64,000 nt of DNA from Planctomycetota bacterium (GTDB lineage Bacteria > Planctomycetota > SZUA-567 > H5-PLA8). A model generated the notes under the pieces. It ran no database searches and had not been told where the DNA came from. It was given only the letters and a program-made list of their open reading frames with translations. The stretch spans positions 51,726 through 115,725 of the forward strand of contig JAKLKQ010000006.1 of NCBI GenBank assembly GCA_023150555.1, given 5' to 3'. Within the stretch, counting starts at the first letter, position 1. Every line of letters starts with the position of its first letter. This document shows positions 3,053 to 63,700 of this stretch, piece after piece. The position numbers and the translations under genes are program-made.

Positions 3053-3064
3053 CTGACCAGTCAG
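3053..3064. promoter_or_regulatory. Candidate TetR operator palindrome CTGAC-ca-GTCAG
   Basis: A perfect 5-2-5 inverted repeat sits about 35-40 bp upstream of the TetR start, at the edge of an AT-rich 460-bp divergent intergenic region. Confidence 0.4.
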
Positions 3065-3585
3065 TTTCAAGTATTACACTCCGATTATCGTCTTGGGTCA
3101 AGAGCGTTTTTATCGATTTCCTTTCCCGCTCAGTATGAGAATGCCGCGAACCATAGTTCATTTTACAGTCATAAATCGTTTGTTTACTTGAGTTAAAATA
3201 CATAGCTAATGAACATAGAACTAGGTCGAGAAATTATTTTCACGCACGCTGGCCACCAGCTGATAGTGGTTTCTCGGGCCGAAGAGGGGGTGAAAAAAAT
3301 TTCGAGGTGCGCTGGTTCCGTTAATTTCATGCCCTCAAAGGACTTTGGACCTATTAAAATAAGAATTGATATGGCTCGGACGTAAAAAAACATTGTGCAG
3401 ATGTTGACTCCTCGCGAAACTCGGTTTTTATAGGCTGATCGGGCGCTCGAGGGCCGGGTGGAAGCTCATGTCGGAATGCATCCTACAAGGTGCATGCCTA
3501 ATAAATACTTACTTTGGGGTCTCCCATTCTGCCTCGGCGCAGGCTCCCGCTGTGGGATTTGCGCCACGCCCAAATTACGCGGAGG

Positions 3586-8196: not shown

Positions 8197-8224
8197 CCGC
8201 GCGGAAACGAAGAGGAGATTCCGA

Positions 8225-34239: not shown

Positions 34240-34265
34240 CGTGGGATCTCCTCGTTCGGTTCCGG

Positions 34266-43283: not shown

Positions 43284-46200
43284 CTACTTGCCGCTTAACG
43301 CCTTGGCTTTCTTCGCAAGGTCGATGAACTCGGCGCGCTGGCCTTCCGCGTCGGCGCCCTTGCTCTCGCCGGCCAGCTCCAGCACGAAGTCCCAGTTCAA
43401 ATTCTTCGCGTAGACGCTGCCGCGCAGCAGCATGCCGAAGGCGGCGACCGAGGACGCGAAGCGGAAGTCCGGGCTGCTCTGTTCGAGCTTCTTTCCGCCG
43501 TCGCGCACCGGGACGCTCAGTTCCGTGCTCTTGTCTTCCTCGGGCTGCTTGTAGCGCAGCCACACGGTCAGCAGCTCGCCGCTGGTCTTCGCGTCTTCCT
43601 TGACCTTGGCTTCCTCGAGGTACCGCGACGCGCGTTCGGCGGGCGCCTTGGGCGCGGCCAGCTCGGCAAGTTTGACGGTGCGCTTGACCGTCGTCTTGAT
43701 CACGTTCGCGTCGGCGACGGCGCTGACTTCGAACTCGTACTCGCCGTCGGCCGTGGGCAGGAAGTACGCGTTCGGGCGGTCGGCGTCGCGCAGGTCGGCC
43801 TTGGGGCCGCCCGTCTGCTTCCAGATGAAGGTCAGCTTCGCGACTTCTTCGGGCTTGGCGTTCAGCAGCAGCACGTCCAGAGGCACGCGCACGGGCTGCA
43901 CGGCTTCCTCGGTGCCGGCTGGAATCACCTCATACAGCGCGGTGACGGCGTGGCCCGCGCCGATCTCGCCGGCGTCCTTCGTGTCGTCGGCGAAGTCTTC
44001 CTTGCGCATCAGGCGGTTCTCGTAGCCGATCAGGCGGTAACTGTGCGCCGTCGCGGGATTGAATTCGACCTGCACCTTCACGTCCTTGGCGATGGTCACC
44101 AGCGTGCCGGCCAGCTCCTGCCCGAAGACCTTCTTCGCTTCCTGGAACGAGTCGATGTACGCGTAATGGCCGTTGCCCTTGTCGGCGATGGCTTCGAGCT
44201 TGTCGTCCTTATAGTTGCCCATGCCGAAGCCGAGCACGCTCAGGAAGACACCGCTCTTGGCCTGTTTCTCGATCAGCTTCACCAGTTCGTCGTTGCTGGT
44301 GGTGCCGACGTTGAAGTCGCCGTCGGTGCAGAGGATCACGCGGTTGGTGCCGCCGGCAATGTGGTTCTTCGCCGCGATCGCGTAGGCCTTCTGGATTCCG
44401 TCGCCGCCATTGGTGCTGCCGCCGGCGTTCAGCGCGTTGATGCGTTCGAGGATGCGGCGCTTCTGGTCGCAGGGCGTGCTCTCCAGCTCGACCTTGATCG
44501 TGTCGCTGTAGGTCACGATGGCAACGCGGTCGCGGGCGTTGAGGTTGTCGACGAGCAGGTTCAGGCCCTGGCGCACGAGGTCCAGCTTGTTCGCGTCGCC
44601 CATCGAGCCGCTGACGTCGACGAGGAAGACCAGGTTGCTGCTGGGTCGGCTGTTCGGATCGATCTCGCGGCCCTTCAAGGCGATGCGTACCAGGCGGTGC
44701 GCGGCGTTCCACGGGCAGGTGGCGACCTCGATGTGCGTGGCGAAGGGCTCCTTCGCGTCGCTGGGCGGCGGCTCGTACGCATAGCGGAAGTAGTTGATCA
44801 ACTCCTCGTAGCGCACCGCGCCGAGCGGCGGAAGCTGGTTGTCGTTTAGCCAGCGGCGCACGTTCGAGTACGACGCGGTGTCCACGTCGATGGAGAAGGT
44901 GCTGATCGTGCGGGCCTTCTCGAAGGGATTCTCGTTCACCACCGCGTAGGATTCGGTCTGGCGGCCTTCGTCGGGGTGCGGTGCAACGTAGCCCATGCGC
45001 CCGTGGTCGAACTCGCCGTCGACGCCCAGCAGCGCGAGGCCGCCGTCCTTGAACGCGCCGCCGATGCGGTAGTCGTCAAGGGAGCTCATCATATCGCTGA
45101 AGCGCCCGCCGATGCGCGTGAGGCGCCACCTGTCGTTGTTTTGTCCGCGCGCGGGATCCGCCGCGTTGAAGTGCCAGATGACCATCCCGCCGGGCGCTTC
45201 CGGTGCGGGCGTTGCAGGCGAGCGAGCGCCGGACCATTCGCCGCGGGTCCACAGTCCGCGCGTCGAGCCGCGGTCGGCCCAGAGGTTGTCGGTCAAGCGG
45301 TAGCCGGTGGCGACGTAGAAATCGCTAACAGCGGAAATTTCTTCGAGCACGCCAGCCGGATGATACGCGCGGAACTGGTCGGCCCAGTGCTGCTGCGTCG
45401 AACGGTATCCGGTGTCGAAGTTGAATCCTTGAAAATTGAAGTCGTGATGCGGGGTGACGCCGTGGTACTGCGCGTAGGCGTCTTCAATCGAAACCTTTGA
45501 CACCGAAAGGAAGTAATCTGGCGACGGCAGACCGTGAAGCGAATGAGGAACGATCTCTTGGTGCCGCGAACTACCGCGCGTATTACGCCAAGCATCTTCC
45601 TTGCTCATCAGTCCATAGGCGACGGCCCAATTGGCGTTGTTGATATCACGCGCATTGTACCAGCGGTCGCGGATGCCTTCCTCGCCGATGATCACGCTGT
45701 CGGCGATTCGTTTCTGCGTCTCCATATCAAACCTAAGCTGCCCGCGGCGGATGGCGAAGCCGTCGTTGTCTTCCTGCGGGGCATACACATCGTTGAGATT
45801 GATGCCGCTGTCCCGCGAAATGCCTACGGCAACGTTGTCGTTCTGGATGGTGTAGAACCACGTCTGCACCAGCCCGCCCATGGTGAGCTTGCCTTCTTTC
45901 GTCGTCACGCCGGCGTTGGGGCCATACTTGTCCTCGACGACAGTGTCAGCGGAGCCGATGGACGCAACGGCAGGAGCGTTCGTCTTCTGTTCTTTGGCCA
46001 ATTGCTCGCGCAGCTGCCTTAAATCTTCGCGAAGCTGCCTGATCTCTGCGGTCTCCGAGTTTTCGCCACCTTGTATTGTTGGGGCCTTTTTTACCGTCTC
46101 TTTCTTCTGTGCAATCTGGCCTTCAAGCTTCGCGATTTCGGTCTTGATTATCCCCTCGGGACTCGTGATTTCCCAGACCGGAAAGCCCTTTTCGAGGATG

Positions 46201-47618
46201 CCGGGCTTCGGCGCGTCGGTCGTCTTCTTCGTCTCCGCGATCTCGGCCTCGGGCTTCGCGTCGGCGGTGGCCGTCGAGTCTGCAAGCGGCGGGCCCGGTC
46301 GGCGCGAAGCATCGCCGTAGCGAATGCCAAGATCCAGTTGTCTGAAGCTACCGTCGGACCTGGACGCCACTTCGCGCGAAAGACCTTGGATCAATTGGGG
46401 ATGCTCTGCCCAACGGTACCAACCACTGGCAATTGCGGCCTCCGTGCGCTCCGGGGGAGGCGGCGGTCCTGGCGAATACGTCAGCTCAGGCGAGGCCGGA
46501 TGATACGGCGCAACCGGATCCGCTTCTTCCTCCAGCCGCTCCTTACCCAATTCTTCGTTCATCAGGTGCCAGGTGCCTTCGATGGTGTTCGGCGAACTGT
46601 TAATCTGAAGATCAACCGCATCCTCGGTCCTGTATTTCTCCGGCGCCCAAGCGAGCGACGTCTGAAGCCGCTCCTCGCCGATCTTCAGATTCTCGTCCGT
46701 AACTCGGTCGACTTCTTCGAGAAGCTCGGAGATCTTTTGGTTGTGGCGCTGGATTACCGCGGCGCGCGGCGCGACGGCAGTCTCCATGTTCACTTCCGCG
46801 CCCATCCAGCCCGCACCGCTACTGGTCCCGCCTGAACTGGACGTGGCGCTGCCGCTGCCCGGCTGGGCGTCTGCGGCATCCGTTACAGAGGCAATAAAGG
46901 CCCCCAGCTTCTCATGCTGCACACTCAGGTTCTCCTGGACGTCGGCCGACAAATTCGCATCGTTGTGTACGCCGTCGATAGTGATGCCGTTGCCCGCCTT
47001 GAACTTCCCGATCTGAAATTCGAGCGCGGTGTCCAGGTCCAAAGTATTCGACGCGGCCTGGTCTTGCGCCGGCGTCGGCATGTCCACCGCAACGGACGAG
47101 GACGGACTCATCTGTCCGTACGAAGCCACCAGCAGGCCCACCAGCACGGAGATGACCAGCGTCGCGGCGACGGCGCCGAGCGCGAAGTAGCGCCGGAAGG
47201 GTGACGGCGCGGGCCGCGTGGCTTCCCGCGCGCGGCGCCCGCTGCCGGCGGCGGCGTGCGGTTTTTCCGATACGGTGCTTACGGTTTGTGTAGGAGCTTC
47301 GTCCTCGAATGCGGCGGCCATGAGGGCTTCGGCGCTCAGAGCACTGGCTAGCCGGCCGCCTTTCACCGAGGAGGACTCCGTGGCGCCCAGCCCAACGCAG
47401 AGCGTTTCGCCCGTCGCGCGCAGGTCTTCGACGTACTGGCGCAGTTCGGGGTCGCGCGCGATCGCTCCGGCGATGGCCGCGATGCTTTCCTCGTCGAGCG
47501 CCTCGAGTTCGCCCAGCGCGTAGGCGGTGACGCGCGGGTCGTCCCGCCAGCCGCCGTTCGCGGCTTCGGCGCCGTTCTTCCAGGCGATCGTTTCGTTGTT
47601 CTGGTCGTGCTCGCTCAT
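43284..47618 (-). CDS. Giant anti-sigma-factor::YfbK-type vWA fusion protein (1444 aa)
   Basis: N-terminal anti-sigma-like cytoplasmic domain (RVTAYALGELEALDEESIAAIAGAIARDPELRQYVEDL), one TM helix, a large periplasmic region, and a C-terminal vWA (LVFLVDVSGSMGD) + DUF3520-like module as in YfbK. It starts 27 bp after the ECF sigma gene. Confidence 0.75.
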   Translation of the reverse strand: MSEHDQNNETIAWKNGAEAANGGWRDDPRVTAYALGELEALDEESIAAIAGAIARDPELRQYVEDLRATGETLCVGLGATESSSVKGGRLASALSAEALMAAAFEDEAPTQTVSTVSEKPHAAAGSGRRAREATRPAPSPFRRYFALGAVAATLVISVLVGLLVASYGQMSPSSSVAVDMPTPAQDQAASNTLDLDTALEFQIGKFKAGNGITIDGVHNDANLSADVQENLSVQHEKLGAFIASVTDAADAQPGSGSATSSSGGTSSGAGWMGAEVNMETAVAPRAAVIQRHNQKISELLEEVDRVTDENLKIGEERLQTSLAWAPEKYRTEDAVDLQINSSPNTIEGTWHLMNEELGKERLEEEADPVAPYHPASPELTYSPGPPPPPERTEAAIASGWYRWAEHPQLIQGLSREVASRSDGSFRQLDLGIRYGDASRRPGPPLADSTATADAKPEAEIAETKKTTDAPKPGILEKGFPVWEITSPEGIIKTEIAKLEGQIAQKKETVKKAPTIQGGENSETAEIRQLREDLRQLREQLAKEQKTNAPAVASIGSADTVVEDKYGPNAGVTTKEGKLTMGGLVQTWFYTIQNDNVAVGISRDSGINLNDVYAPQEDNDGFAIRRGQLRFDMETQKRIADSVIIGEEGIRDRWYNARDINNANWAVAYGLMSKEDAWRNTRGSSRHQEIVPHSLHGLPSPDYFLSVSKVSIEDAYAQYHGVTPHHDFNFQGFNFDTGYRSTQQHWADQFRAYHPAGVLEEISAVSDFYVATGYRLTDNLWADRGSTRGLWTRGEWSGARSPATPAPEAPGGMVIWHFNAADPARGQNNDRWRLTRIGGRFSDMMSSLDDYRIGGAFKDGGLALLGVDGEFDHGRMGYVAPHPDEGRQTESYAVVNENPFEKARTISTFSIDVDTASYSNVRRWLNDNQLPPLGAVRYEELINYFRYAYEPPPSDAKEPFATHIEVATCPWNAAHRLVRIALKGREIDPNSRPSSNLVFLVDVSGSMGDANKLDLVRQGLNLLVDNLNARDRVAIVTYSDTIKVELESTPCDQKRRILERINALNAGGSTNGGDGIQKAYAIAAKNHIAGGTNRVILCTDGDFNVGTTSNDELVKLIEKQAKSGVFLSVLGFGMGNYKDDKLEAIADKGNGHYAYIDSFQEAKKVFGQELAGTLVTIAKDVKVQVEFNPATAHSYRLIGYENRLMRKEDFADDTKDAGEIGAGHAVTALYEVIPAGTEEAVQPVRVPLDVLLLNAKPEEVAKLTFIWKQTGGPKADLRDADRPNAYFLPTADGEYEFEVSAVADANVIKTTVKRTVKLAELAAPKAPAERASRYLEEAKVKEDAKTSGELLTVWLRYKQPEEDKSTELSVPVRDGGKKLEQSSPDFRFASSVAAFGMLLRGSVYAKNLNWDFVLELAGESKGADAEGQRAEFIDLAKKAKALSGK

Positions 47619-47645
47619 CGTCTTGCTCCGGCTTTCGGCGCCTGC

Positions 47646-48266
47646 TTACGCGCGCGCCGCGTTGCTCTCTCCGTCCTCCGCTACGCGCCGCGCTGCCATG
47701 CGTCCCGAATTATCCGTCGAATTCGCATCGAAATTCGCCGCTTCCTTCGCGCCGTCCGCCTTCATTTCCGTGCGCATCGCCTGCATGGCCTTGTGAAGGA
47801 GGAAGCCGACGTTGGTGACGCTGCGCCCGGTGACGCGCGCGATCTCGCGGTAGCTCAGGCCGTGCTGGAACTTCAGCCGCACCACTTCCTGCTGCAGCGC
47901 AGGCAATTTGACGAGCGCCTCGCGCATGCGCGCGCCGTCTTCGCGGTGCTCGGCGAGGGCGTTCGGTTCGGGCGTGAGGGCTTCCTTCTGCGCGAGCGCC
48001 ACTGAGGCGCTGCGCAGCCGGCGGTCCTTGCGGTGGGCGTCGATGGCGCGGCTGCGGCAGACGGTGTAGAGGCGTTCGCGGAGGTTGCCGTTCAGCGAAC
48101 CGGGGTCCTGGCGGCAGAGCCAGAGGAAGGTCTCCTGCACGGCGTCGCGCGCGCGGTCGGGATCGCCGGTCAGGCGCTGGGCGTAGTGCTCCAGCGGCCC
48201 CCCGAAGCGTTCGAGGGCCTCGCCGACCCAGCGGGTCGCATCGGCCTGGCTATCCACCGCGCTCAT
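47646..48266 (-). CDS. ECF RNA polymerase sigma factor
   Basis: Sigma70 region 2 (ERFGGPLEHYAQRLTGDPDRARDAVQETFLWL) and region 4 (LQQEVVRLKFQHGLSYREIARVTGRSVTNVGFLLHKAM). The track ORF extends to 48320. Confidence 0.8.
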   Translation of the reverse strand: MSAVDSQADATRWVGEALERFGGPLEHYAQRLTGDPDRARDAVQETFLWLCRQDPGSLNGNLRERLYTVCRSRAIDAHRKDRRLRSASVALAQKEALTPEPNALAEHREDGARMREALVKLPALQQEVVRLKFQHGLSYREIARVTGRSVTNVGFLLHKAMQAMRTEMKADGAKEAANFDANSTDNSGRMAARRVAEDGESNAARA

Positions 48267-48394
48267 TTCGATTCGCTCGGGCTCCGCTCCCCTGCGCCCG
48301 CCACCGCTTTCGCCCCCCACTACGGATGAGAGCGACTTTTCTTAGCGCCTCCGGACCGAATTCCGAGAATTCCGGCGTCGCGAAAGGCTTGCCA

Positions 48395-48530
48395 TGGCCT
48401 GTTCCGGAACCCTAATGAGAGTCTAATAGTTCACGTGAAACTTTTTTGCGATTATCTGCATAACGCCTTTACAGAAAAGGACTGCTCTGTGTGCAAAGCG
48501 TTACACTGCACGAAGTAGGCTAGGGAATTG
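48395..48530 (-). repeat. AT-rich conserved non-coding element, copy 2 (homolog of 23030-23130)
   Basis: The minus strand reads CTTCGTGCAGTGTAACGCTTTGCACACAGAG ... AAAAAAGTTTCACGTGAACTATT, collinear with copy 1. It lies between the dciA-like gene and the ECF sigma gene, next to a GTTCCGGAAC palindrome. Confidence 0.5.
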
Positions 48531-48551: not shown

Positions 48552-48878
48552 TTACGCGTCGCCGCTCGCCAGCTTTACGCGGACCTCGCGCACGGCCAAC
48601 CCGGCGGCGCGGAAGGCGTCGAGCAGTTCTTGGCGGCGGTAGCCTTCGAGTTCCTGAAAGAGCGCCGCGCTGTCGGCTTCGACGGTCACGACGCCGGTCT
48701 TGACACTCAGCACGTCGGCGTGCGGCGCGAGTTTCTCGCCGAGGATCTCGGCGAGGACCTTGCGCGCGAGGCGGCGGCCCTGGAGCTGGCGCTTGCCCAG
48801 GCCTTCCTTGCGCACGACGCCCTTAAGGATGTCGCCGAGGCCCTGCGCGGGAGCGGGTTTCTTGCGTTCGCTGGCCAT
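48552..48878 (-). CDS. dciA: DUF721 / DciA-like small protein
   Basis: About 108 aa with GLGDILKG...LAPHADVLSVKTGVVTVEADSAALFQELEGYRRQELLDAF, matching the DUF721 pattern. Same operon as dnaN. The upstream Arg-rich part of the 48552..49307 track ORF is rejected. Confidence 0.55.
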   Translation of the reverse strand: MASERKKPAPAQGLGDILKGVVRKEGLGKRQLQGRRLARKVLAEILGEKLAPHADVLSVKTGVVTVEADSAALFQELEGYRRQELLDAFRAAGLAVREVRVKLASGDA

Positions 48879-48888
48879 GCGCGTGCGC

Positions 48889-50025
48889 CTACCGGACCGA
48901 GAACTCCTGCGTGCTGGACGGCACCACCTGCCATACCTGGATGCTCTCGTCCTGCCCGCCGCTGGCGACGCGCGTGCCGTCGGAGCTGAACGCCAGCGCG
49001 GTGACCCAGCCGATGTGGGGCTCGAGCGTGAAGCGGCAGCCGCCGCTGGCGGTGTCCCACGCCTGGATCTGGCGCAGGCTGCCGGCGAGTACGAACTTGC
49101 CGTCGGGCGTAAAGGCCAGCGCCGTGACGCGCACCTTCGCGCCCTTGAGTTCGAACGCGACGCCCTTCTTCGCGACGCTCCAGAGCTGAAAAATGGGCTG
49201 CTGCCCGCCCACGGCGAGGAAGCGGCCGTCGCCCGAGTACGCCAGCGCCGCGATGCCCGGGCCGCCGTCCTTGAAGTTCGGCGCAGCCTGGCAGAGCACC
49301 TGCCCATCGGCGAGCGTCACGACCGCGAAGGCTTCGGTCGCGTCGCCGATGCCCATGCCGGGGTTGATGGCGTGCAGGGCGGCGGACTTCCCGTCGTGCG
49401 ACGGCAGGATCGCGCTCACGGCGGGCAAAGGCAGCGCGCAGGCGTGCAGGGGTTTGCCCGTGGCGGCGGCGAGCACGCGCAGCTGCTTGGGCACGGCCAG
49501 CACCAGGGCCTGGCCGCCGGGCGAGTAGGCGCCCAGCGTGGCGCCGCTGCAGTCGAAGCCCGGCACCGCAGTCTTGGAGGCTACGTCGAGCAGTTCGGCC
49601 TTGCGCCCCAGCAGGTCGACCAGCAGCAGGCGCTTGCCGTCGGGCGAGAGCGCGCCGCTTTTGCCGGAGAACTCGCCGGCCAATTTGGGTTCGGCGCCGG
49701 GGCTTTTGGGCAGCTCCCAGACCTTCACGTGCCCGCCGCCGGCGCTGAGCAACCGCGGCGAGGCCGCGGCGAACTGCAGGCGCTCGACGCCCTTGCCGTG
49801 CTTGAATACGTAGCCGCCTCCCTTGGGTGCGGCGGGCGCGGCTGCCTTGGGCGCGCCGGACGCCTTGGACGGCTGCGCGGTTTCGAGGGCGGCGTTATCG
49901 GTCTTCAGGCTGGCTTTGGAATCGCTCTTGGCGGGCGCCTTGGGCATTCCGCCGCCGCCGGCCGCGAAGTAGAAGATGCCGCCGATGGCCAGCGCCACCG
50001 CCGCGAGCAAAATGGCCGTGCGCAT
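48889..50025 (-). CDS. WD40-repeat protein with N-terminal membrane anchor
   Basis: TM helix TAILLAAVALAIGGIFYF, an Ala/Pro/Lys-rich linker, then repeated beta-propeller blades (GHVKVWEL, QIQAWDT, SIQVWQV). Confidence 0.7.
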   Translation of the reverse strand: MRTAILLAAVALAIGGIFYFAAGGGGMPKAPAKSDSKASLKTDNAALETAQPSKASGAPKAAAPAAPKGGGYVFKHGKGVERLQFAAASPRLLSAGGGHVKVWELPKSPGAEPKLAGEFSGKSGALSPDGKRLLLVDLLGRKAELLDVASKTAVPGFDCSGATLGAYSPGGQALVLAVPKQLRVLAAATGKPLHACALPLPAVSAILPSHDGKSAALHAINPGMGIGDATEAFAVVTLADGQVLCQAAPNFKDGGPGIAALAYSGDGRFLAVGGQQPIFQLWSVAKKGVAFELKGAKVRVTALAFTPDGKFVLAGSLRQIQAWDTASGGCRFTLEPHIGWVTALAFSSDGTRVASGGQDESIQVWQVVPSSTQEFSVR

Positions 50026-50038
50026 GGCCGCCGCCGCG

Positions 50039-51148
50039 CTAGTCCTTCCCGCTGACGGGCATCAGGACGTAGAGGTAGTCGGTGCCTTCGCGGATCACGC
50101 CGGGGCGCGCGCCGTCCTTCATCTCGATGCGCACGGTCTCGGCGTCGAGGGCCTTCAGACAGTCCTGCACGAACTGCGGGTTGAATCCGATGGTCAGGGC
50201 CTCGCCTTCGTATTCGACCTCGACGGTGACGGCGGCGACGCCCTTGTCGGGGCTGCGCGCCTCGATCAGGCACGTGCCGGGGCTGAAGGTCATGTTGACG
50301 GTGCGGGTGTCGTCGCTGGTTAGGAAGACGGCCTTGCGCAGGGCGTGCTGCATGGCCTCGCGCTTGAAGGTGGCTTCGTGGTCGCTGTCCTTCGGGATGA
50401 CCTGCTGGTACTTGGGGAAGATGCCTTCGACAAGCAGGCTGCTGAGCGTCACGTCGCCGCCTCGCACCAGGAAGTTGCGCCCGCGCACGGCCAGTTCGAC
50501 GTTCTCGCCTTCGGCGATCGGATCGCAGAGCTTGCGTACTTCCTGCATCATCTTGACGGGCACGATCACGCCGTCTTCCAGCGTTCCGCTGCCCTTCAGC
50601 TTGCGCTTGCAGTAGGCCAGGCGGCGGCCGTCGGTAGCGACGACTTCCAGCGTCTTGTCCTTGAACTGCATGTACACGCCGTTGATCGCGAAGCGGCCCT
50701 GTTCGCGCGCGGCGGCAAAGAGCGTGCGGTCAATGATGCGGGCGATCTCGCTGGCGGGCACCGGCAGCGTGGCGCCGTCGCCCAGGTCCGGAACGTCCGG
50801 GAAGTCGCTCGACTCCTGCCCGACGATCTCGAAGCGGTCGCGCCCGACGGTAAGGATGCCCTTGGCGCCCTCGGTCTCCAGCGTGACCACGTCCTCGGTG
50901 CATTCCTTTAGCAGGCCGGCCAGCGTGGTGCAGGGCAGGCACAGCGAGGCGGGATTCTTGACGGACTCGGCCTTGAGCTTGTAGCGCAGGCCCACTTCCA
51001 GGTCCGTGGCCTGGATCTCGAGGTTGCCGTCTTTGTCGGCGACCAGCAGCGCATTCTTGAGATTCTGGCGCACGCCGCGCAGCGGGACGACGGCGGCGGC
51101 CGCCGAAAGAGCAGCGGTGAAGGGTTCGCGCTTGACGACGAGTTTCAT
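50039..51148 (-). CDS. dnaN: DNA polymerase III beta subunit (sliding clamp)
   Basis: About 370 aa. The start MKLVVKREPF and a three-domain beta-clamp pattern (LEIQATDLEVGLRY, FAINGVYMQFKDKTLEVVATDGRRLA, IGFNPQFVQDCLKAL). Confidence 0.85.
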   Translation of the reverse strand: MKLVVKREPFTAALSAAAAVVPLRGVRQNLKNALLVADKDGNLEIQATDLEVGLRYKLKAESVKNPASLCLPCTTLAGLLKECTEDVVTLETEGAKGILTVGRDRFEIVGQESSDFPDVPDLGDGATLPVPASEIARIIDRTLFAAAREQGRFAINGVYMQFKDKTLEVVATDGRRLAYCKRKLKGSGTLEDGVIVPVKMMQEVRKLCDPIAEGENVELAVRGRNFLVRGGDVTLSSLLVEGIFPKYQQVIPKDSDHEATFKREAMQHALRKAVFLTSDDTRTVNMTFSPGTCLIEARSPDKGVAAVTVEVEYEGEALTIGFNPQFVQDCLKALDAETVRIEMKDGARPGVIREGTDYLYVLMPVSGKD

Positions 51149-51909
51149 GGCTTGCTTCTCCTTAACGCCGTCGCTGTTCATACGCAAGCTTGGGCGGTTT
51201 CTTGATCTTGTCCGTGCTGTTCTTGCCGTTCCTTTATAGTAATTAATCTATTCCCTCTTACCTCTTATAGGGCCGCTCCGGATGTGGATAAGTCCGTCGG
51301 CTTCGAGGCAAGCGGTTCATGCCAAAGGAATTGTACCTTTCAACCTCACCCGGTGCACATGTGAAAAGAGCCGGGGCCTTCTTCGCGCCGACTGTTCATC
51401 CCGGAGAACAATCCACACGGCCCTTTTCGCGCGCGCGCGGGAAGATATTGGAGCCGGCGTGAAGCCGGACACCAGCGCTTGCGTTCGCGGGGCTTTCCAC
51501 GGCTGCGAAAGCCCCAACGCCCAAGCGCGCCTGGGCGTGGACGAATCTGGAAAAGAGCAGAGGCTTTCCCGAACTCTTCCACGGCCTGCATCGCGTCCGC
51601 AGCATTCGTTCCGCCGCCGATCCTTCCGCGATTCACGGGTTTTCAACAGCGCCAAATGGCGCGCATGTCGAAGATCCCGGCGTGCTGCGCTCAACGGCAC
51701 GGGCAGTCTATGCCAAACAAGGCTCGGGTCAAAGTCTTTAGGGTAAGAAACGTCAGCTATAAGGGCTAAGGAGCAAACGGTTTTAGGGCTTCCGATGCAC
51801 CATGTTCCGTGCTACTCTAAAGGCTGCACTTCGGCGGGATTACCGAAAAATAGGGGCCTAAAAGCGTTCGCCGCGACGTCTATGGAGAGGCTTTAAGGAC
51901 GAAGCCGCA
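51149..51909. other. Candidate chromosomal replication origin region (oriC) upstream of dnaN
   Basis: A 760-bp non-coding gap with a perfect DnaA box TGTGGATAA (51283-51291), a weaker box cAATCCACA (51409-51417), and an AT-rich stretch CCTTTATAGTAATTAATCTATT (51231-51252). Confidence 0.35.
51283..51291. promoter_or_regulatory. Perfect DnaA box (TTATCCACA, on the complementary strand)
   Basis: An exact 9-mer consensus 30 bp from an AT-rich tract, upstream of dnaN. Confidence 0.45.
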
Positions 51910-53533: not shown

Positions 53534-54490
53534 TCAGCTCCACGCCGCGCGCAATCCATCAAACAGCGCCGCGAAGGCGCGCGACTCCTCCGTGCCCGAG
53601 CGGTAGACGACGCCGAACGAGAGCGCCCCGCCTTTCAGCCGCTCGCTGACGTCGAAGGCCACGGTGTTCGGTTCGCGCGGCAGCGCGGCTTCGGTCTCCT
53701 CGGTATCGTTGCGCTTTGCTTTCCCGTCCTTCGCATTCTTCGTCCAATGCAGGTACGGCACGAAGGCCGGCGCCACGCCCTGCCGCACCAGCGCGCGCAT
53801 CGTCTGCGCGAAGGTCACTTCCGCCGCGATCTTCAGGCGCCCACCGGCTTCCTGCAGCAGGCGTTCGGTCAGCACGCGCCCCGGCGAGTCGCCCTCGTAG
53901 GCGATCAGCCCGTGCGGCGCCAGTTCCTGCGGCGTGGGCTTGCGCCCCAGCGCCGCCAGCGGGTGGTTGCGCGGCACCAGCAGCGCAGCGCCGATGCGCC
54001 CCAGCGGCTTCCAGTTCAGGCCCGGCGGGCCTTTCAGCAGCAGCACCAGCCCCGCGTCGGCGTGCCCGCTGCGCACGCGTTCGACGATCTCCGCCGTGGC
54101 GAGTTCCTCGACGCGGACCACCAGGCCCGGGCACTTCTTCTGCGCGTGCCGCAGCGCCGGCGGCAGCGCTTCCATCGCCAGGAACTGGTCCGACGCGAGC
54201 ACCAGCGGCGCGGCGCCGCCGGTCGCGACGCGTTCCAGCACCTTCGGCAGGCCCTCGAAGAACGGCGCGACGAACGCGAACAGCGCGCGGCCTTCGGGCG
54301 TCAGCTCGGTGCGCCGCGGCCCCGCCTGCCGCACCAGCGCCACGCCCAGGGCCTCCTGCAGGCCCTTCACCTGCTGGTAGACCGCCGGCTGCCCGATGGG
54401 GTACGGGAAGGCCTGCGCCGCCTTCGTGTAGCCGCCCTCGCGCGCGACGTGAAAGAAGCCTTCGAGCTGGTGGATGCGGACGTCGGGCAT
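53534..54490 (-). CDS. LysR-family transcriptional regulator
   Basis: N-terminal HTH (IHQLEGFFHVAREGGYTKAAQAF...QVKGLQEALGVALV) and a LysR substrate-binding domain. Confidence 0.8.
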   Translation of the reverse strand: MPDVRIHQLEGFFHVAREGGYTKAAQAFPYPIGQPAVYQQVKGLQEALGVALVRQAGPRRTELTPEGRALFAFVAPFFEGLPKVLERVATGGAAPLVLASDQFLAMEALPPALRHAQKKCPGLVVRVEELATAEIVERVRSGHADAGLVLLLKGPPGLNWKPLGRIGAALLVPRNHPLAALGRKPTPQELAPHGLIAYEGDSPGRVLTERLLQEAGGRLKIAAEVTFAQTMRALVRQGVAPAFVPYLHWTKNAKDGKAKRNDTEETEAALPREPNTVAFDVSERLKGGALSFGVVYRSGTEESRAFAALFDGLRAAWS

Positions 54491-54514
54491 GGCCGGTTCT
54501 CCTATCAACTGCAT

Positions 54515-54532
54515 TGATACTACTTTTAATCA
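54515..54532. promoter_or_regulatory. LysR-type box TGAT-N10-ATCA in the divergent promoter region
   Basis: An inverted-repeat T-N11-A motif 25 bp upstream of the LysR start, inside an AT-rich 127-bp divergent region. Confidence 0.4.
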
Positions 54533-54617
54533 CTATTGTTTTAAAGAATATTTTGCTTTGCGTAAGAATCGCCCCGAACGGGAGCGCAGGCCGCGCCCCG
54601 CCCCGGAGGACCGAGCC

Positions 54618-57600
54618 ATGCTGATCGTGATAGCGCTCTTGATGCTGGTGGTGGTCGGCGCGATCACCGTGATCTGGCTGGGCCTGAAGGGTTTGTCCTG
54701 GCTGCTGGGCGTCGGCGACCAGCCCAAGCCGCGCGGCAGCTACCACTACACCGCCTATCGAAGCGAACCGGCGGGCTCGCCGATCGGTCTGAACGCGCAC
54801 GGGGAAGCCGCGCGGGACCGGGAGGACCCGCGCCCCATCCCCGCCGTTCGGCCCGATCCCGCGCCGCCCGCCGCAGGCATCAAAGCTGTTCCGCTCGACG
54901 AGTACGCGCACTACGGCGTGCTGCGCATTCCGGGCGGCGAAGCGCACCTGGAAGGCGCGCTGCCGCGCAGTCCGGAAAAGATCCGCGCCGCCGCCGAGAA
55001 GCTGCACCGCGACGAGACCGCCCCCGAGACGCCGGGCATTCCCGAGACCCCCGATGGAGCCTCCGCCCAGGAGGCTCCCCCTGTTCCTCCTTCCCTGGCT
55101 GCGTCGATGGCCACGGCAGCGGACAACCGAAAGGAGCCGCACGCGTCCGCATCGGCCGTCCGCCAGGGAAAGGAGGACCCCACCCTTTCGGAGATCCTGC
55201 AGCGCGCGTCGCAGCAGGTGGAAGCCGGCCGCGCGCGGGGAAGCGTCGTTCCGTTGATGCGCAGGCCCTCGCCGCCCGAATCCAAGCGGCCCTGGACCGA
55301 GCGCCTCTTCACGCCGGAGAACATCCGCATCCTGCAGAGCTTGGGCATCGGCATCATCTTCATCTCCGCGGTGGCCTTCGTGCGCGGGCAGATGTGGGAC
55401 GCCGCCGGCCCCTGGGAGCAGCTGGGCATCCTGCTGGGCGGCACGCTCTTCTGCGGCCTCGCGGGCTTCGCGCTGCACCGCTGGACGTCGCTGCGCATCA
55501 CCGGCCTGGGCTTCCTGCTGCTGGGGCATCTCTCGCTGCTGCTCGATACGTACGCTTCCGTGCTGAACACCGCCAGCGGACCGGCGCTGTATCCGTTCGC
55601 GCCGGCCTCGCTGTGGACGGCGATGTTCGCGGCCTTCGCGGGCAGTTCGCTGTGGCACGCGCGCAAGCTTAAGGAACCGCTCTTCGAGGCCTTCGCCGTC
55701 TTCGGCGCGCTCTGTTCGTGGGGCAGCGCCGCGTACTGGTTCGGATTTCCGTGGGCAATGATGCCGGCGGCCATGGTTCCCGCGCTGCTTTTGTGCGCCA
55801 TCGGCGCGCGGGCCCTCGCCAAGGACGGCGAGCCCGTGCGGCGCTGGTCGGTGGCGTGGTGGCTGGGCGCGATCTGGGACCTGGGCGGGCTGCTGATGGC
55901 GCTCGCGCTGCCCGCGGTGGCGGTCTTCGACGCGAACCTGAAACTCGAATCGCACCTCGTCCTGCACGTGGCCGTGCTGCTGGGCTTGGCGCTCGCGCTG
56001 CTGGCGCAGGCCTGGCGCGCCGCGGGCCCGCAGGGCGAAAAGAAGAGTTCGACCAGCCTGTTGGGCCGCGTGGACGCCGCCGCAGTGCTGCTCCTGGCGC
56101 CGCTGCCGCTGGTCTTCTTCGCGCGTGGGGCGGAATGGTACCAGTACCTCACGGCCTTTGCGCTGCCGGCGGCGCTGCTGGGCGGCGTGGCCTTCGCGCT
56201 GCGCCGCGCGCTGGCCGGCACCGGCTGGGCGCGCGAGTGCCTGGTCGAACGCCTGGGCCACTGGGGCATCGGCGTGGCGCTCTTCGCCGTGCCCTTCGCG
56301 CTGCTGGTCGCGGTGGACGGCGCGATGACGCCCGCGCAGGCGGCGCTGCCCGTCGCCGCGGCGCTCTTTGCGTCGCTGGTCGCGGCGGTCTTCGGCAGGC
56401 AGGCCTGGGCCGCGGGCACGGCGACGCTGCTGGCGGCGGCCGTCAGCGGGCTGCTGCTGGCCGAACACCGCGCGGCGGCGGAAGCCTGGCCGGCGGTCTG
56501 GCTGGGCGGCGCGCTGCTGCTTCAGGCGGCGTGGGCGCTGCTGGGTTCGCGCGCGCCGGAATTCGCGGGCGAAGCGCCGACGGTGGGCACGCGGAGCGCC
56601 GACCTGTGGGCGCTGCTGGCCGCCGCGCTGCTGGTAACGCTGAACCCGGCGGTGCCGCTGGGCTTGGCGGCGAAGGCGGCCTCTACGGAACTCCTCTACG
56701 GCTGGCTGGCGCTGCTGGGCTACGCGGCATGCGCGGCGTTGCTGCGGCGCGGCAACGCGCGCTGGAGCGTCGTCTTCTACGCGGGCGTGCCGGCGCTGCT
56801 GGGGCTGACGGGCTGCGCCTACGCATTGTGGAAGTGGCCGGCGGAGAGTTTCCCGCTGGCCTGCTCGGGTCTTGCGCTTGGGGCGTGGTGGCTGGCCGGT
56901 TGGGCGCGGCAATCGGGCATGGGGCTCGATGCCGGCCGGCGCCACGCCCTGAGCATGCCTACCTTTGCGGTCGCGCTGCTGGGCGCGGGCCAAGCGCTGC
57001 ACGGCCTGTACGCCTGGCCCGACGGCCCCAAGCACCTATACGCCGTCGCGACGTGGGCCGGCTACGCGCTGCTGGGCTGGCGCGCGAGCACCGGGACGCG
57101 GCGCGCGCACTGGAACACCGGCACCTTCTTCGGCCTGGTCTGCGGGAGCTTGATCGCGCTGGCCGCGCTGCACGGAATGCGCGCGGCCTCGCTGCCCGCC
57201 GCGCAGATCGGCCCGGTGCTGATGCTGGTCGCGCTGGTCTTGCAGGCGCTGTGCGAGTTGAGCCTGCGCATCGCGCGATCGGAGACGGACGGCGAAGCGG
57301 CGGCGGAAACCGGCGCGCCCTTGTCCGGGGCGCCGCTTTCCGGCCGGGCGATGGGCCTGCGCGTCTCTTCGGCGCTGGCGGGCTTCGGCGCGCTTTCGCT
57401 CGGCTGGATCGCCGCCGCGGGCACGCATCCGTGGTGCTGGGCCTCGACGCTGCTGATGGGCGCGGTGCTTATGGCAACGGAGGCGGTGCTGGGCCGGCGC
57501 GGCAAGGCGAAGATCCACGCGCCGCGCTTCATGCTGCTGGAACTCGCGGGCTTCGCGCTGCTGGCGTGGTCGGCGCGCGAGGCGCTGCTGGCGCTGAACT

Positions 57601-59177
57601 TCCAAATGATTCCTCAATTGTGGCCGCTGGGCGGCGCGCTGCTGCTGCTGGCGGGCATGGCCTGCGAGTCGCTCGCCGGCGCGGTGCTGGGCATCGAGAA
57701 GGCCCGCGAGACGCCCAGCCCCTTCCTGGAGTCGCGCATGATCGCGGCGCTGGGCCTGGGCACGCTCGGTCTGGCGCAGGCGCTGCTGGGGCGGCAGCCC
57801 TTCGGGCTGTTCATCGAACCGACGTGGCGAACGATCTTCGCCTGCGCGGCGCTAGCCGTGTACGGTTCGATGGCGCGCTGGAGCGCCGAAGACGCCTGGA
57901 CGCGCCTGGCGCAGTGGGGCAGCGGGCTCACGGCGTACGTGCTGCTGCCGCTGGGCTACCTGGCCTTCCTGGAAGCGCATTCGACCGGCAGCAGCTACGG
58001 CGGCGCGTGGTTCATGCTGCTGGCGCCGCTGATGCTGGCCACCGCGTACGTGCTGAAGCGCAACGGCCAGGGCGCGCAGGTGGCGCTGGCCGCCGCCGGG
58101 GCGATGTTTGTCAACGCGGGCGCGCTGGTGCTGGCCTTCGCGAAGAACGCCGGAAACCTGCCCGAGGTTCCGATGCTCGTCTTCGCGGGGATCGGCGCAC
58201 AGCTGGTTGCCGCGCGCGCTTACTTTAAGTCGTCGGCCTTCACCTACGCGGCGTGCGCGGCCTGGACGGGCTTCGCGCTCTTCGCCGAACGCCTCGCCTT
58301 CGGACTCGGCGCGTGGAACCCCGCGCCGCCGGTCTGGGAGCCGCTGGCGATGCTGGCCCTGGGCGCCGGGCTGCTGCTGGCCTTCAGCTCGAAGCAGGCG
58401 GCGAAGCGCATCCAGGAGCACCAGCACGTGGCGCTGTACGGCTTCTGGCTCGCGACGGGCATGGCGGTGTGGTCGTTCCTCGTGTGGGGCATGTACGCGC
58501 CGCACGGCGCGCGCGCCTCGGCTTCGGGACTGCTGCGCTACGAGGTCCTGATCGCGTGCCTGGCGTTGTACGGCTGGGTCTGCACGCACGCGCGGCGGGC
58601 GCTGAGCTTCGAACCCGGCGCGTGGCTGGGCCCGGCGCTGACGATGCTCGCCTACATGCTCTATGTCTGGAAGATGCGCCCCGACGCCTGGGAATGGTTC
58701 ATGCTGCCGCCGGCGGTCTTCTGCTTCGGCTGGGCGTACCACCTGGCGAAAGAAAGTGGCCTGGGCGCGCGCGGCGAGGACCGCGAGCCCGTCAACGCGG
58801 TGCTGGGCGCGGCCAGCCTGCTGGCGCTGGCGCCGAGTTTCCTGCAAGCGATGCCGTACGAGCCCGGCCTGAGCAGTTCGACGTACCACTACTTCGCGCT
58901 GGTGGTGCTGGGCTTCGCGCTGGTGGGTGGTGCGATGGTCGCGCGGCGCAAGGTGCCGCTGCTGGCCGGCAGCGGCGCGATACTGCTCGGCACGCTGGTG
59001 AAGGCGGTGCAGTGGATCGCGGACAAGAGTGTGGCCCTGCCGGTGGCGGGCATCGTGATCGGGTTCTTCGTCCTGATGGTGGGCTGCTTCTTCGAGTCGC
59101 GCATGAACGCGGCGCTGAAGCTGGCCGTCGACCGCGCCAAGGCCGAAGCCAAGCTCTTCTGGATTTCGTGGCAGTGA
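54618..59177 (+). CDS. Giant polytopic membrane protein (~1520 aa, >35 predicted TM helices; unknown function)
   Basis: ggagga RBS plus ATG at 54618. Almost entirely hydrophobic Ala/Leu/Gly/Trp-rich helices with short loops. Divergent from the LysR gene. Confidence 0.7.
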   Translation: MLIVIALLMLVVVGAITVIWLGLKGLSWLLGVGDQPKPRGSYHYTAYRSEPAGSPIGLNAHGEAARDREDPRPIPAVRPDPAPPAAGIKAVPLDEYAHYGVLRIPGGEAHLEGALPRSPEKIRAAAEKLHRDETAPETPGIPETPDGASAQEAPPVPPSLAASMATAADNRKEPHASASAVRQGKEDPTLSEILQRASQQVEAGRARGSVVPLMRRPSPPESKRPWTERLFTPENIRILQSLGIGIIFISAVAFVRGQMWDAAGPWEQLGILLGGTLFCGLAGFALHRWTSLRITGLGFLLLGHLSLLLDTYASVLNTASGPALYPFAPASLWTAMFAAFAGSSLWHARKLKEPLFEAFAVFGALCSWGSAAYWFGFPWAMMPAAMVPALLLCAIGARALAKDGEPVRRWSVAWWLGAIWDLGGLLMALALPAVAVFDANLKLESHLVLHVAVLLGLALALLAQAWRAAGPQGEKKSSTSLLGRVDAAAVLLLAPLPLVFFARGAEWYQYLTAFALPAALLGGVAFALRRALAGTGWARECLVERLGHWGIGVALFAVPFALLVAVDGAMTPAQAALPVAAALFASLVAAVFGRQAWAAGTATLLAAAVSGLLLAEHRAAAEAWPAVWLGGALLLQAAWALLGSRAPEFAGEAPTVGTRSADLWALLAAALLVTLNPAVPLGLAAKAASTELLYGWLALLGYAACAALLRRGNARWSVVFYAGVPALLGLTGCAYALWKWPAESFPLACSGLALGAWWLAGWARQSGMGLDAGRRHALSMPTFAVALLGAGQALHGLYAWPDGPKHLYAVATWAGYALLGWRASTGTRRAHWNTGTFFGLVCGSLIALAALHGMRAASLPAAQIGPVLMLVALVLQALCELSLRIARSETDGEAAAETGAPLSGAPLSGRAMGLRVSSALAGFGALSLGWIAAAGTHPWCWASTLLMGAVLMATEAVLGRRGKAKIHAPRFMLLELAGFALLAWSAREALLALNFQMIPQLWPLGGALLLLAGMACESLAGAVLGIEKARETPSPFLESRMIAALGLGTLGLAQALLGRQPFGLFIEPTWRTIFACAALAVYGSMARWSAEDAWTRLAQWGSGLTAYVLLPLGYLAFLEAHSTGSSYGGAWFMLLAPLMLATAYVLKRNGQGAQVALAAAGAMFVNAGALVLAFAKNAGNLPEVPMLVFAGIGAQLVAARAYFKSSAFTYAACAAWTGFALFAERLAFGLGAWNPAPPVWEPLAMLALGAGLLLAFSSKQAAKRIQEHQHVALYGFWLATGMAVWSFLVWGMYAPHGARASASGLLRYEVLIACLALYGWVCTHARRALSFEPGAWLGPALTMLAYMLYVWKMRPDAWEWFMLPPAVFCFGWAYHLAKESGLGARGEDREPVNAVLGAASLLALAPSFLQAMPYEPGLSSSTYHYFALVVLGFALVGGAMVARRKVPLLAGSGAILLGTLVKAVQWIADKSVALPVAGIVIGFFVLMVGCFFESRMNAALKLAVDRAKAEAKLFWISWQ

Positions 59178-60737: not shown

Positions 60738-63700
60738 ATGAACGCGAACGAAGGCAGTCCCGGCGCGAGCACCCCTTCCGAGCGCCCCCTTATAAAGGAG
60801 GCGGCCCCGTCTGCGCCCGGCGCTCTCGCGGCGCGCGGCTGGCTGCGCGGCCTGGTCGAGTACCTGGCGCAGACGCGCTGGTGGGCGGTGGCCGCGGCCT
60901 TCCACGTGCTGCTGCTGGCGCTCTCCGGCGTTGTGGCGATGGTCGCGCTGCCGTACTTTGGCCAGGGCGAAACGTACAGCACGCTCTCCCTCGTCCATCC
61001 CCCGGCGCCCGAGTACGACGAGAAGCCCGCGCGCGACGTCTTCCTGAAGCCCATGCCGGTCGACGCGAACAGCGCACCCATCGAGAACCCCATGGTCACG
61101 CACGAGACCATCGAGTTCGGCGACCACAGCGAGACCGAGGTCTCGAACAGCTTCGACACGCAGATGCTGCGCGGAGCGGCAGGCATGAGCGACATGCCGA
61201 TGGGCGGCAGCGGCACCGTTGCGGCCATCGGCTTCGGCGGCGGCGGGGGCGGCGCGTACGGCTGCTCAAGCTACGCCGGTGCCGGCGGACGCCGGCGCCT
61301 GGCCATGCGCGGCGGCGGCGCATTGGCGACGACCGAGCGCGAACGCCGCGCGTATGCCGTCGATCCGCGCGTCGCGGCCGCGGTGCGCTGGCTGGCGCAG
61401 AACCAGGACGCCGACGGCGGCTGGGACTGCAAGGCCTTCGGCGGCAAGGAGCACGACGTCGCGGTCACCGGCATGGCGCTGCTCGCGTTCCTCAGCGCCG
61501 GCAGTACCGAGATGGAAGGCCCCTACCGCGACCAGGTCCGCCGCGCGGTTACGTACCTCAAGCAGCACCAGCTCCCCGATGGGCGGCTCGCCGGAGCCGG
61601 CGGCGAAGGCGATGGCTACGCGCACGCAATCGCGGGGATGAGCCTGGCCGAGGCCGCGGGCCAGGGCCGCGTCAGCGATACGATCCGCGCCGCGCAGCAG
61701 GCCGCCTTCTGGAGTGCCGCGCTGCCGGACGTGCCGGACGCCGCGTGGCGTTACCGCGGGCCGGGAGGTGAGGGCGACCTCTCCGTCACCGGCTGGTACG
61801 TCCTGCAGCTCGACGCCGCGCGCGCCAACGGCCTGCGGGTCTCAGACCATGCGCTCGACCAGGCCCGCGCGTTCCTCGACCGCGTGTCGGTGAAGGAGAA
61901 GGGCGCGGCTGCCACGAAATATCTTTACAGACCCGGCGGCAAGGAGAGCGTGCGCCTGGACGCCATCGGCGCGGCCTGTGACCTGCTGCTGGGCGACGGG
62001 CGCAGCCCCGCGCACGGCCTGCGCGCGCTGCCCGACGCGCGCACGCCCGATCTGTACTACTGGTACTACGGCACGCTGGCCGCGTTCCAGGCCGGCGGGC
62101 ATCCGTGGAAGCAGTGGCACGGCGCGCTGTACCGCACGCTGGCCAGCACGCAGCGGCGGGGCGGCGCGGAGACCGGAAGCTGGGACCCCGCGGGCGACTA
62201 CGCCGACCACTGGGGCCGCGTGGGCCAGACCGCGCTGAGCGCCCTGTGCCTGAACGTCTACAACCGCAACCTGCCCGCCGCGCCCGACAGCACCGCCGGC
62301 CTGGCGCCGGCCCCCGCGCCCGAACCCAAGCCGCAGGCGCTCGAGAACCCGCAGGATGCCGTCGATCCGGTCGCGAACACCGAAAGCTACGATCCGATCG
62401 ACGAAGCGACCTTCACGAAGGTCATCGGCGCCGACGCGCTCTCGACCTTCGACATCGACGTCGACACCGCGTCGTACTCGAACGTGCGCCGCTTCATCCA
62501 GGGCGGGGACCTGCCGCCCGCCGGCGCGGTCCGCATCGAGGAGCTGGTCAACTACTTCGACTACGATTACCGGGCGCCGGACAACGGCGACGCCTTCGCC
62601 GTGCGCACGGAGATCAACGAGTGCCCGTGGAGCCCCGCGCACCGCCTGGCCCTGGTGGCGCTGAAGGGCCGCGAACTCGAACGAGCGAAGCCCGAGGCGC
62701 GGCCGTCGAGCAACCTCGTTTTCCTCGTCGACGTCAGCGGCTCGATGAGCGCCGACAACAAGCTGCCGCTGGTGCAGCAGGGCCTGCGCCTATTGGTCGA
62801 CAACCTCAACGCGAAGGACCGCGTCGCCATCGTCACCTACGCCGGCCACGCGGGCGTGGCGCTGGAGAGCACGCCCTGCGGCGACAAGCGCGGCATTCTG
62901 AACGCGATCAACAGCCTGGGCGCCGGCGGCGGCACCAACGGCGCGCAGGGCATCCTGACCGCGTACGAACTGGCGAAGAAGGGCTTCATCCCCGGCGGCG
63001 CCAACCGCGTGATCCTGTGCACCGACGGAGACTTCAACGTCGGCGTCACCAGCCGCGACGAGCTGCTGGACCTGATCAAGGAGCAGGCGAGGAGCAACGT
63101 CTTTTTGACCGTGCTGGGCTTCGGCATGGGCAACTACAAGGACAGCACGCTCGAACTGCTCGCCGACAAGGGCAACGGCACCTACGGCTACATCGACACC
63201 TTTACGGAGGCGAAGAAGGTTTTCCAGAACGATCTCGACGCGACGCTGGTCACCATCGCCAAGGACGTGAAGATCCAGGTCGAGTTCAACCCCGCCAAGG
63301 TCGCCGCCTACCGCCTGATCGGCTACGAGAACCGCGTGATGGCCGCCAAGGACTTCCGCGACGACACCAAGGACGGCGGCGAGATCGGCGCCGGCCACCG
63401 CGTCACCGCGCTGTACGAGCTGATTCCCTTTGGCGACCCGGGCGCCTCCGCCGTGCGCGGCGCCGGCCCGCTGAAGTACCAGGAAACCGCCAAGTCCAGC
63501 GCCGCCGCGCAGAACGGAGAACTCTTCACCGTCTACCTGCGCCACAAGCAGCCCGAAGGCGATTCGGCCACCGAGCGCGACGTCGCGGTGCGCGACGCGG
63601 GACTCGGGTGGAAGGACGCTAGCGCCAACCTGCGCTGGGCCAGCGCGGTGGCCATGTTCGGCTTCCAGTTGCGCGGCAGCGCGCACAAGGGCCGCACCGG

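Follow-up and report, generated by a model that had tools for sequence, protein, structure and literature searches.

The DNA analysed here, called the window below, is a 64,000-nucleotide (64-kb) stretch of a high-GC Planctomycetota metagenome-assembled genome (contig JAKLKQ010000006.1 of assembly GCA_023150555.1, positions 51,726 to 115,725 of the forward strand; guanine plus cytosine (GC) content about 66%). The element in question is a run of three consecutive minus-strand genes within it: dnaN, which encodes the beta sliding clamp; a gene for a WD40 beta-propeller protein with an N-terminal membrane helix, hereafter the WD40 gene; and dciA, a DUF721 gene whose product is a putative helicase loader. 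The three lie exactly where the original prediction had placed them, in tight tandem with gaps of 13 and 10 bp, and its statement that dnaN stands apart from dnaA, recF and gyrB also proved correct. None of these last three genes was found among the 37 open reading frames (ORFs) of the window that were scanned, 36 with Pfam and one more (13421-16414) with NCBIfam alone, where it had no match; a few smaller ORFs lay outside the scans. Instead of a canonical dnaA-dnaN-recF-gyrB cluster, there is a HEAT-repeat gene upstream of dnaN, on the opposite strand and divergent from it across a 761-bp intergenic region, and downstream of dnaN come the WD40 gene, dciA, a 231-bp spacer, an extracytoplasmic function (ECF) sigma factor gene and a gene for a 1444-aa von Willebrand factor A (vWA)/YfbK protein. 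Homologues of DnaC or DnaI were likewise absent from the scanned ORFs.

The DnaN protein matches all three domains of a beta clamp (PF00712, PF02767 and PF02768, E=1e-20 to 1e-23) and aligns to positions 1-366 of the 367 in TIGR00663 with a score of 241 bits against a cutoff of 138. The ATG at 51148 is preferred as its start over an upstream TTG at 51187 because an AAGGAG Shine-Dalgarno sequence lies 9 nt before it. The small third ORF, of about 108 aa, had been proposed to be DUF721/DciA-like, and a search with the hidden Markov model of that family confirmed the assignment with a full-length match to PF05258 (positions 2-89 of 89, E=1.4e-14, 54.5 bits, cutoff 24). This DciA consists of the domain and little else, with 13 aa before and 7 aa after it, and it has neither a disordered extension nor a terminal helix pair. 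Most DciA proteins of this group are 100-113 aa long; four reach 124-134 aa through N-terminal extensions only, and a C-terminal extension occurs in none of them. Tryptophan is absent both from the 108-aa protein and from the domain of its clade relatives. A sequence search of the PDB with the single DciA sequence gave no match, and a profile of 17 DciA sequences from the clade gave a weak one to chain C of 8a3v, a DUF721 domain protein (E=0.021, residues 36-103).

The product of the WD40 gene is 100% identical to NCBI MCK6470997.1 (locus tag L6R28_04555). Many long spurious ORFs arise in high-GC DNA, and the 378-codon frame might on that ground be suspected of being one of them; this suspicion is almost certainly misplaced, and it was rejected on the GC content by codon position (0.69/0.54/0.93, the correct pattern for a gene and the same signature as in the neighbouring genes) and on a ratio of nonsynonymous to synonymous substitution rates (dN/dS) of 0.33-0.57. 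The ORF is also intact in 8/8 distinct orthologous sequences known, and it has both a Pfam WD40 match and a confident propeller model. In this model (AlphaFold2, mean predicted local distance difference test (pLDDT) score 78.7), the protein is predicted to comprise a helix at residues 2-21, a disordered linker at about 22-68, a seven-bladed propeller at 72-369 and a floppy eight-residue tail, and the propeller itself has 28 strands, four in each of seven blades, at a pLDDT near 90. It was computed from a 36-sequence alignment, an earlier alignment of five sequences having given a pLDDT of 52 and an unusable model. Canonical WD repeats are found in only about the last three blades. Foldseek against the PDB returned only generic seven-bladed WD40 propellers, with 5yzv as the top match, and an NCBIfam scan of the protein returned no family. 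Pfam, AlphaFold2 and Foldseek thus point alike to WD repeats in a closed, multi-bladed fold, and the annotation as a membrane-anchored WD40 beta-propeller, resting on the Pfam match and on the predicted helix and seven blades, can be kept. Among orthologues, mean identity is 87% in the helix and 86% in the propeller; the linker, at 61% and with insertions and deletions, is the most variable part.

The N-terminus is built in the classical manner of a signal anchor or signal peptide: the residues MR, a hydrophobic helix of 20 residues (Kyte-Doolittle 19-mer scores of up to 2.4), GGGG and a linker rich in Ala, Pro and Lys (A13 G8 K7 P6). The helix has one Arg before it and three Lys and one Asp in the 15 residues after it, a balance on which the positive-inside rule is ambiguous. 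Several short distant homologues (P0106, P0113, P0092 and P0038) have clear signal peptides or N-in anchors, and therefore exported WD40 propellers do occur in this sequence neighbourhood. It seems fairly probable that the propeller is periplasmic, and if so, contact with the clamp would be impossible.

Proteins that bind the beta clamp, among them Pol II, Pol IV and Pol V, MutS and Hda, carry a motif of the QL[SD]LF type, also known as the Dalrymple motif. The original prediction had proposed looking for such a motif in the WD40 protein, and strict and loose patterns were searched for in all five orthologue clusters. No strict match to QL[SD]LF, QLxLxL or Qxx[LMI]xF was found in the WD40 protein, and the loose matches QALVL and QLRVL, at residues 172 and 181, lie inside beta-strands of the propeller and are lost in one orthologue (P0005). 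The tail, SSTQEFSVR, is conserved but out of register with the clamp motif, and in two orthologues His or Leu takes the place of its Gln. An accessible, conserved motif in a terminal or disordered region, as expected of a clamp-binding protein, was thus not found in the WD40 protein, and the matches that do exist are buried and not conserved.

Distribution and rate of evolution of the WD40 gene

Relatives of the locus were collected independently of the WD40 gene, by a DnaN search of one genome per species (GTDB) that yielded five Planctomycetota genomes (L001-L005), to which a sixth (L013) was added through a DciA search. In these six sister genomes, of which 10-15 kb each was inspected, DnaN is 74-79% identical to the protein of the window, and dciA lies directly 3' of dnaN in 6/6, across short, non-homologous spacers of 31-122 bp. 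By tblastn, none of the six had a WD40 gene between dnaN and dciA or in the 5-7 kb flanking them on each side. The original prediction had itself named absence from this position in close relatives as evidence to the contrary, and absence is what the comparison of gene order revealed. The backbone formed by the divergent HEAT gene and the dnaN-dciA pair is common to L001-L004 and therefore predates the WD40 gene; the sigma-vWA pair follows as well in L003 and L004. In L002, the dnaN-dciA spacer (8120-8245) contains a strong hairpin that resembles an intrinsic terminator (GGGCGGCGC...GCGCCGCCC then TTTTTCTTT), so co-transcription of dnaN and dciA does not appear to be obligatory in this group.

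The WD40 gene was found only in very close relatives, whose DnaN is 99.2% identical (L010, L011, L012, L017, L018 and L019), and in these the order is always HEAT gene (divergent), dnaN, WD40 gene, dciA, sigma gene, vWA gene. Between dnaN and the WD40 gene, L012 has 12 bp and L010 has 27 bp, and 8-10 bp separate the WD40 gene from dciA across the orthologous loci. About 15 billion proteins include eight distinct orthologue sequences, and when 1.84 billion representatives were searched exhaustively with phmmer, all full-length homologues fell in a single 50%-identity cluster. The other matches are large multi-repeat WD40 proteins that mostly align to the three canonical C-terminal repeats only (residues ~250-370), and a few span residues 73-367 at 29% identity. 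A scan of metagenome contigs with the WD40 protein added one further fragment from the same clade, carrying the WD40 gene and dciA, and revealed no alternative context and no donor locus. At the insertion junctions, there were no flanking repeats or traces of mobile elements, only short GC-rich similarities that were judged to be due to chance. The gene that precedes dciA also differs in other relatives: L015 and L016 have a gene on the opposite strand there, and in L014, whose DciA is 79% identical, dciA is preceded not by dnaN but by a gene for an exported, signal-peptide-bearing pyrroloquinoline quinone (PQQ)-like beta-propeller and a 3-keto-disaccharide hydrolase (DUF1080) gene (1059-3290). 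The arrangement in L014 represents another insertion or rearrangement at this site, unrelated to the first. Relatives with and without the WD40 gene have the same conserved DciA domain, so the presence of the gene is not correlated with any change in DciA.

Comparison with L010 and L012 reveals how differently the genes of the locus are constrained. Amino acid identity is 99.2% for dnaN (dN/dS 0.02-0.04) and 93-97% for dciA (0.09-0.17); it is 80-87% for the WD40 gene (0.33-0.57), 88-89% for the ECF sigma gene (0.36-0.49) and, against L010 only, 85% for the HEAT gene (0.40). The WD40 gene is thus about 8-25 times less constrained than dnaN, and its rate resembles that of the flanking non-replication genes and is unlike those of both replication genes beside it. 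In a neighbour-joining tree of DnaN, the clade with the WD40 gene is nested among genomes that do not have it, its sister being L013, followed by (L002,(L001,(L003,L004))) and then by L005. Given this nesting, a single gain is more parsimonious than at least three precise losses, and one recent gain of the WD40 gene is therefore favoured.

The DnaA-box region and the remainder of the window

The long intergenic region between the HEAT gene and dnaN contains a cluster of sequences resembling DnaA boxes, including TTATCCACA, which is the only perfect DnaA box in the window (Table 1). Three of the nine matches to TTWTCCACA in the window (at most one mismatch) fall within the 366 bp from 51283 to 51648 (binomial P=1e-4), and the same enrichment was found in the equivalent region of 7/7 related genomes, with P from 2e-3 to 8e-6 in each (L010 3062-3863, L001 6304-7000, L002 6249-7000, L003 6312-7000, L004 6313-7000, L013 3207-3860 and L005 6300-7000). 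The perfect box is conserved in L010, and a box-like motif occupies the aligned position in L003, L004, L002 and L013; the boxes keep their positions in an alignment with no more than 53% conservation elsewhere. The region is lower in GC than the window as a whole, the flanking genes mostly point away from it, and the cumulative GC skew has its minimum at 44-56 kb, in a window that is too short to show a switch. On this sequence evidence, the region is a reasonable candidate for the chromosomal replication origin (oriC) or for a DnaA-regulated dnaN promoter. A conserved DnaA-box cluster upstream of dnaN with no dnaA nearby would constitute a testable origin candidate in this group of Planctomycetota.

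Table 1. Coordinates of the dnaN-WD40-dciA locus and its parts (positions are those of the window)
Feature	Position	Strand	Remarks
Intergenic region HEAT gene/dnaN, 761 bp, GC 0.57	51149..51909	.	DnaA-box-like cluster; candidate oriC or DnaA-controlled dnaN promoter
Perfect consensus DnaA box TTATCCACA	51283..51291	-	143 bp upstream of dnaN ATG
dnaN (beta sliding clamp, 369 aa)	50039..51148	-	Pfam and TIGR00663
Spacer dnaN/WD40 gene, 13 bp	50026..50038	-	
WD40 gene (378 aa)	48889..50025	-	Pfam WD40, E=2e-21
N-terminal hydrophobic helix, residues 1-22 (MR-TAILLAAVALAIGGIFYFAA)	49960..50025	-	Putative signal anchor or signal peptide
Linker, residues 23-70, GGGG stretch then Ala/Pro/Lys-rich, disordered	49816..49959	-	pLDDT <50
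Seven-bladed WD40 beta-propeller, residues 71-370	48916..49815	-	Pfam, AlphaFold2, Foldseek
C-terminal tail, residues 371-378 (SSTQEFSVR), and stop codon	48889..48915	-	Low pLDDT
Spacer WD40 gene/dciA, 10 bp	48879..48888	-	
dciA (DUF721, 108 aa)	48552..48878	-	PF05258
Terminator-like hairpin (weak), then T-run	48484..48499	-	53 bp 3' of dciA stop

The terminator-like hairpin that follows dciA sits in the AT-richer 231-bp spacer before the ECF sigma gene; since a scan for promoters and terminators gave site counts no higher than expected from shuffled sequence, this hairpin is suggestive only. An Rfam scan of 47.5-54 kb, which covers both long intergenic regions, gave no match.

Elsewhere, the window encodes several large vWA proteins (43284-48320, 60738-63812 and 32965-36941). 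Two of its proteins are paralogous giants of 1444 and 1024 aa with the combination vWF_A, VWA and YfbK_C, the first of which follows the ECF sigma gene and the second of which also has a segment resembling squalene-hopene cyclase; one VIT-VWA protein and one VWA_4 protein are encoded as well. A very hydrophobic, apparently multi-pass membrane protein of 1567 aa (54474-59177) has no Pfam match and is conserved beside a LysR gene in relatives (L002, where it is 33% identical, L010 and L018). Two further ORFs, 13421-16414 (997 aa; NCBIfam only) and 19414-20940 (508 aa; Pfam only), have a coding-like GC pattern and matched no family.

What the WD40 gene may be doing between dnaN and dciA

The explanation that we consider likely is that the locus is a dnaN-dciA module with a lineage-specific WD40 passenger gene, the product of which would be an envelope-associated scaffold without a replication role. 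The functional unit would be the conserved dnaN-dciA pair, transcribed away from a DnaA-box region of about 0.7 kb, probably oriC or a promoter under DnaA control. A gene for a single-pass membrane WD40 protein would have been inserted into the short spacer of this pair in the ancestor of one narrow, roughly genus-level lineage of Planctomycetota. Because the gaps are so short, transcription from the dnaN promoter most likely continues into the WD40 gene, and spacing and strand together suggest that all three genes are co-transcribed. As a consequence, dciA, which is presumably essential, would now depend on transcription, and perhaps on coupled translation, through the WD40 gene, and this dependence would help to fix the arrangement. 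The WD40 protein itself is most likely a protein-interaction scaffold of the envelope with no tie to replication, its propeller perhaps facing the periplasm, and its gene would be a passenger kept in the operon and not a part of the replisome.

Several points weigh against this explanation. The insertion has been kept in every member of the clade with very tight spacing and under purifying selection, so the WD40 protein does something useful, and the fact that it is always expressed along with two replication genes could have been exploited for a role related to replication. The charges around the helix are ambiguous, and it is therefore possible that the propeller lies on the cytoplasmic side. 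A relocated, fast-evolving orthologue elsewhere in the sister genomes could have escaped detection, and the tree on which the single gain was placed is a neighbour-joining tree of one gene with no bootstrap support.

An alternative is a role in replication, in which the WD40 protein would be a lineage-specific accessory with a cytoplasmic propeller that holds the beta clamp, DciA or DnaB at the membrane. Operon gaps of 8-27 bp are kept in all clade members, dN/dS is below 1, WD40 propellers are generic platforms for protein binding, the Lys-rich segment directly after the helix could favour a cytoplasmic C-terminus, and the DciA is of the domain-only kind, whose mode of contact with DnaB is not established. 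Set against this, the same dnaN and minimal dciA occur in six sister genomes without a WD40 gene, there is no clamp-binding motif, and the constraint on the WD40 gene is like that on its non-replication neighbours and many times weaker than that on dnaN. Since DnaN is 99% identical across the clade and the WD40 protein 80-87%, there is no sign that the two have co-evolved, and a literature search for WD40 proteins together with dnaN in bacteria yielded nothing related by title and abstract. We therefore regard a replication accessory as unlikely, and the scaffold for the clamp or replisome that the original prediction suggested is left without support by the absence of the WD40 gene from the sister genomes, its confinement to a narrow clade, its weak constraint and the lack of a clamp motif in its product. 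The most specific form of the idea, in which a cytoplasmic propeller has been recruited as a partner of DciA or the clamp and anchors helicase loading, or the replisome as it forms, at the membrane next to a dnaN-adjacent origin, seems highly improbable. If it were true, such a tether would be a lineage-specific replication accessory without a known bacterial counterpart, and the binding of a WD40 protein to DciA or the clamp would be new; nothing observed here points that way.

The neighbouring genes offer another possibility, namely that the WD40 gene works together with the downstream ECF sigma gene and giant vWA gene in a module for envelope signalling and shares the dnaN transcript by position only. 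The sigma factor and the vWA/YfbK protein do follow dciA in every locus that has the WD40 gene, the WD40, sigma and HEAT genes have similar dN/dS, and a membrane anchor with a linker would plausibly suit a protein of the envelope. However, dciA and the AT-richer spacer with its terminator-like site lie between the WD40 and sigma genes, and L003 and L004 have the sigma-vWA pair without a WD40 gene, so a functional link of this kind seems improbable. It could also be argued that the order dnaN-WD40-dciA is ancestral and that the WD40 gene was lost independently in the sister lineages, leaving the non-homologous spacers of 31-122 bp that precise deletions could produce; a single-gene tree without support values leaves some room for this. 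On the DnaN tree, the gene would nonetheless have to have been lost cleanly and independently three times or more, no full-length homologue exists beyond the one 50%-identity cluster among the 1.84 billion representatives, and the conserved neighbourhood published for dciA is that of recF/gyrB, in which no WD40 gene is mentioned (PMC5109545). An ancestral order is accordingly quite improbable in our estimation.

The locus is mainly of value as a caution: close linkage in an operon with core replication genes is not, on its own, a sign that a gene takes part in replication. A look at sister genomes is an inexpensive way to settle such a question, and in the present case the WD40 gene would be a young insertion at a position that is variable in other relatives.

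Comparison with known replication loci, DciA proteins and WD40 proteins

According to Brezellec et al. (2016, PMC5109545), dciA is found inside the dnaA-dnaN-recF-gyrB-gyrA cluster or next to it in 15 phyla, one of which is Planctomycetes. As in the dnaA-dnaN-recF-dciA-gyrB-gyrA cluster (PMC5109545; Mann et al. 2017, PMC5720831), dnaN and a PF05258 dciA lie on one strand here and adjoin a region rich in DnaA boxes; unlike in that cluster, dciA is paired with dnaN and not with recF or gyrB, and in one lineage the WD40 gene lies between the two. The adjacency of dnaN and dciA is itself unremarkable, and the pair looks like a remnant of an ancestral dnaA-dnaN-recF-dciA-gyrB cluster.

The extensions that matter in the DciA proteins of Vibrio cholerae and Mycobacterium tuberculosis are absent from the DciA of the window. 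In the M. tuberculosis DciA domain, W113 has been described as conserved and functionally critical (PMC5720831), and no equivalent tryptophan occurs here; this residue does not define PF05258, so family membership stands. At the level of whole genomes, dciA and dna[CI] are reported to be mutually exclusive (PMC5109545); the absence of a DnaC/DnaI homologue here applies to the scanned ORFs of a 64-kb window. In the survey of Blaine et al. (2022, bioRxiv 10.1101/2022.01.24.477630), Group 4 is made up of domain-only DciA proteins, in which both flanks of the domain are shorter than 14 aa, as are the flanks of 13 and 7 aa here, and no member of this group has been studied experimentally. By its sequence, the protein appears to fall in Group 4, or on the borderline of Group 1. 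The survey reported Planctomycetia as mostly Group 1 and Phycisphaerae as split between Groups 1 and 3, whereas the present clade appears to be Group 4 or borderline Group 1. The domain-only DciA of this locus belongs to a class whose mechanism is unstudied (bioRxiv 10.1101/2022.01.24.477630).

Among proteins of known structure, the closest to the WD40 protein is the WD40 domain of PkwA from Thermomonospora curvata (5yzv; E=3e-20, target template-modelling (TM) score 0.79, 24% identity), which is likewise seven-bladed. The protein of the window has no kinase domain, has an N-terminal membrane helix and an A/P/K linker that PkwA does not have, and keeps canonical WD motifs in only about the last three of its blades. 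With beta-clamp-binding proteins, the single feature that it shares is the genomic proximity of its gene to dnaN; it carries no motif of the QL[SD]LF type in a terminal or disordered region.

A precedent for a gene unrelated to replication inside a replication operon, albeit in one species, is provided by Mycobacterium smegmatis, where the dnaN-recF-dciA region holds MSMEG_0002, a 6-phosphogluconate dehydrogenase gene, whereas the corresponding gene of M. tuberculosis is at a separate genomic location (PMC5720831). In the Planctomycetota lineage described here, the apparent passenger is instead a membrane-anchored WD40 propeller, and its gene lies directly between dnaN and dciA.

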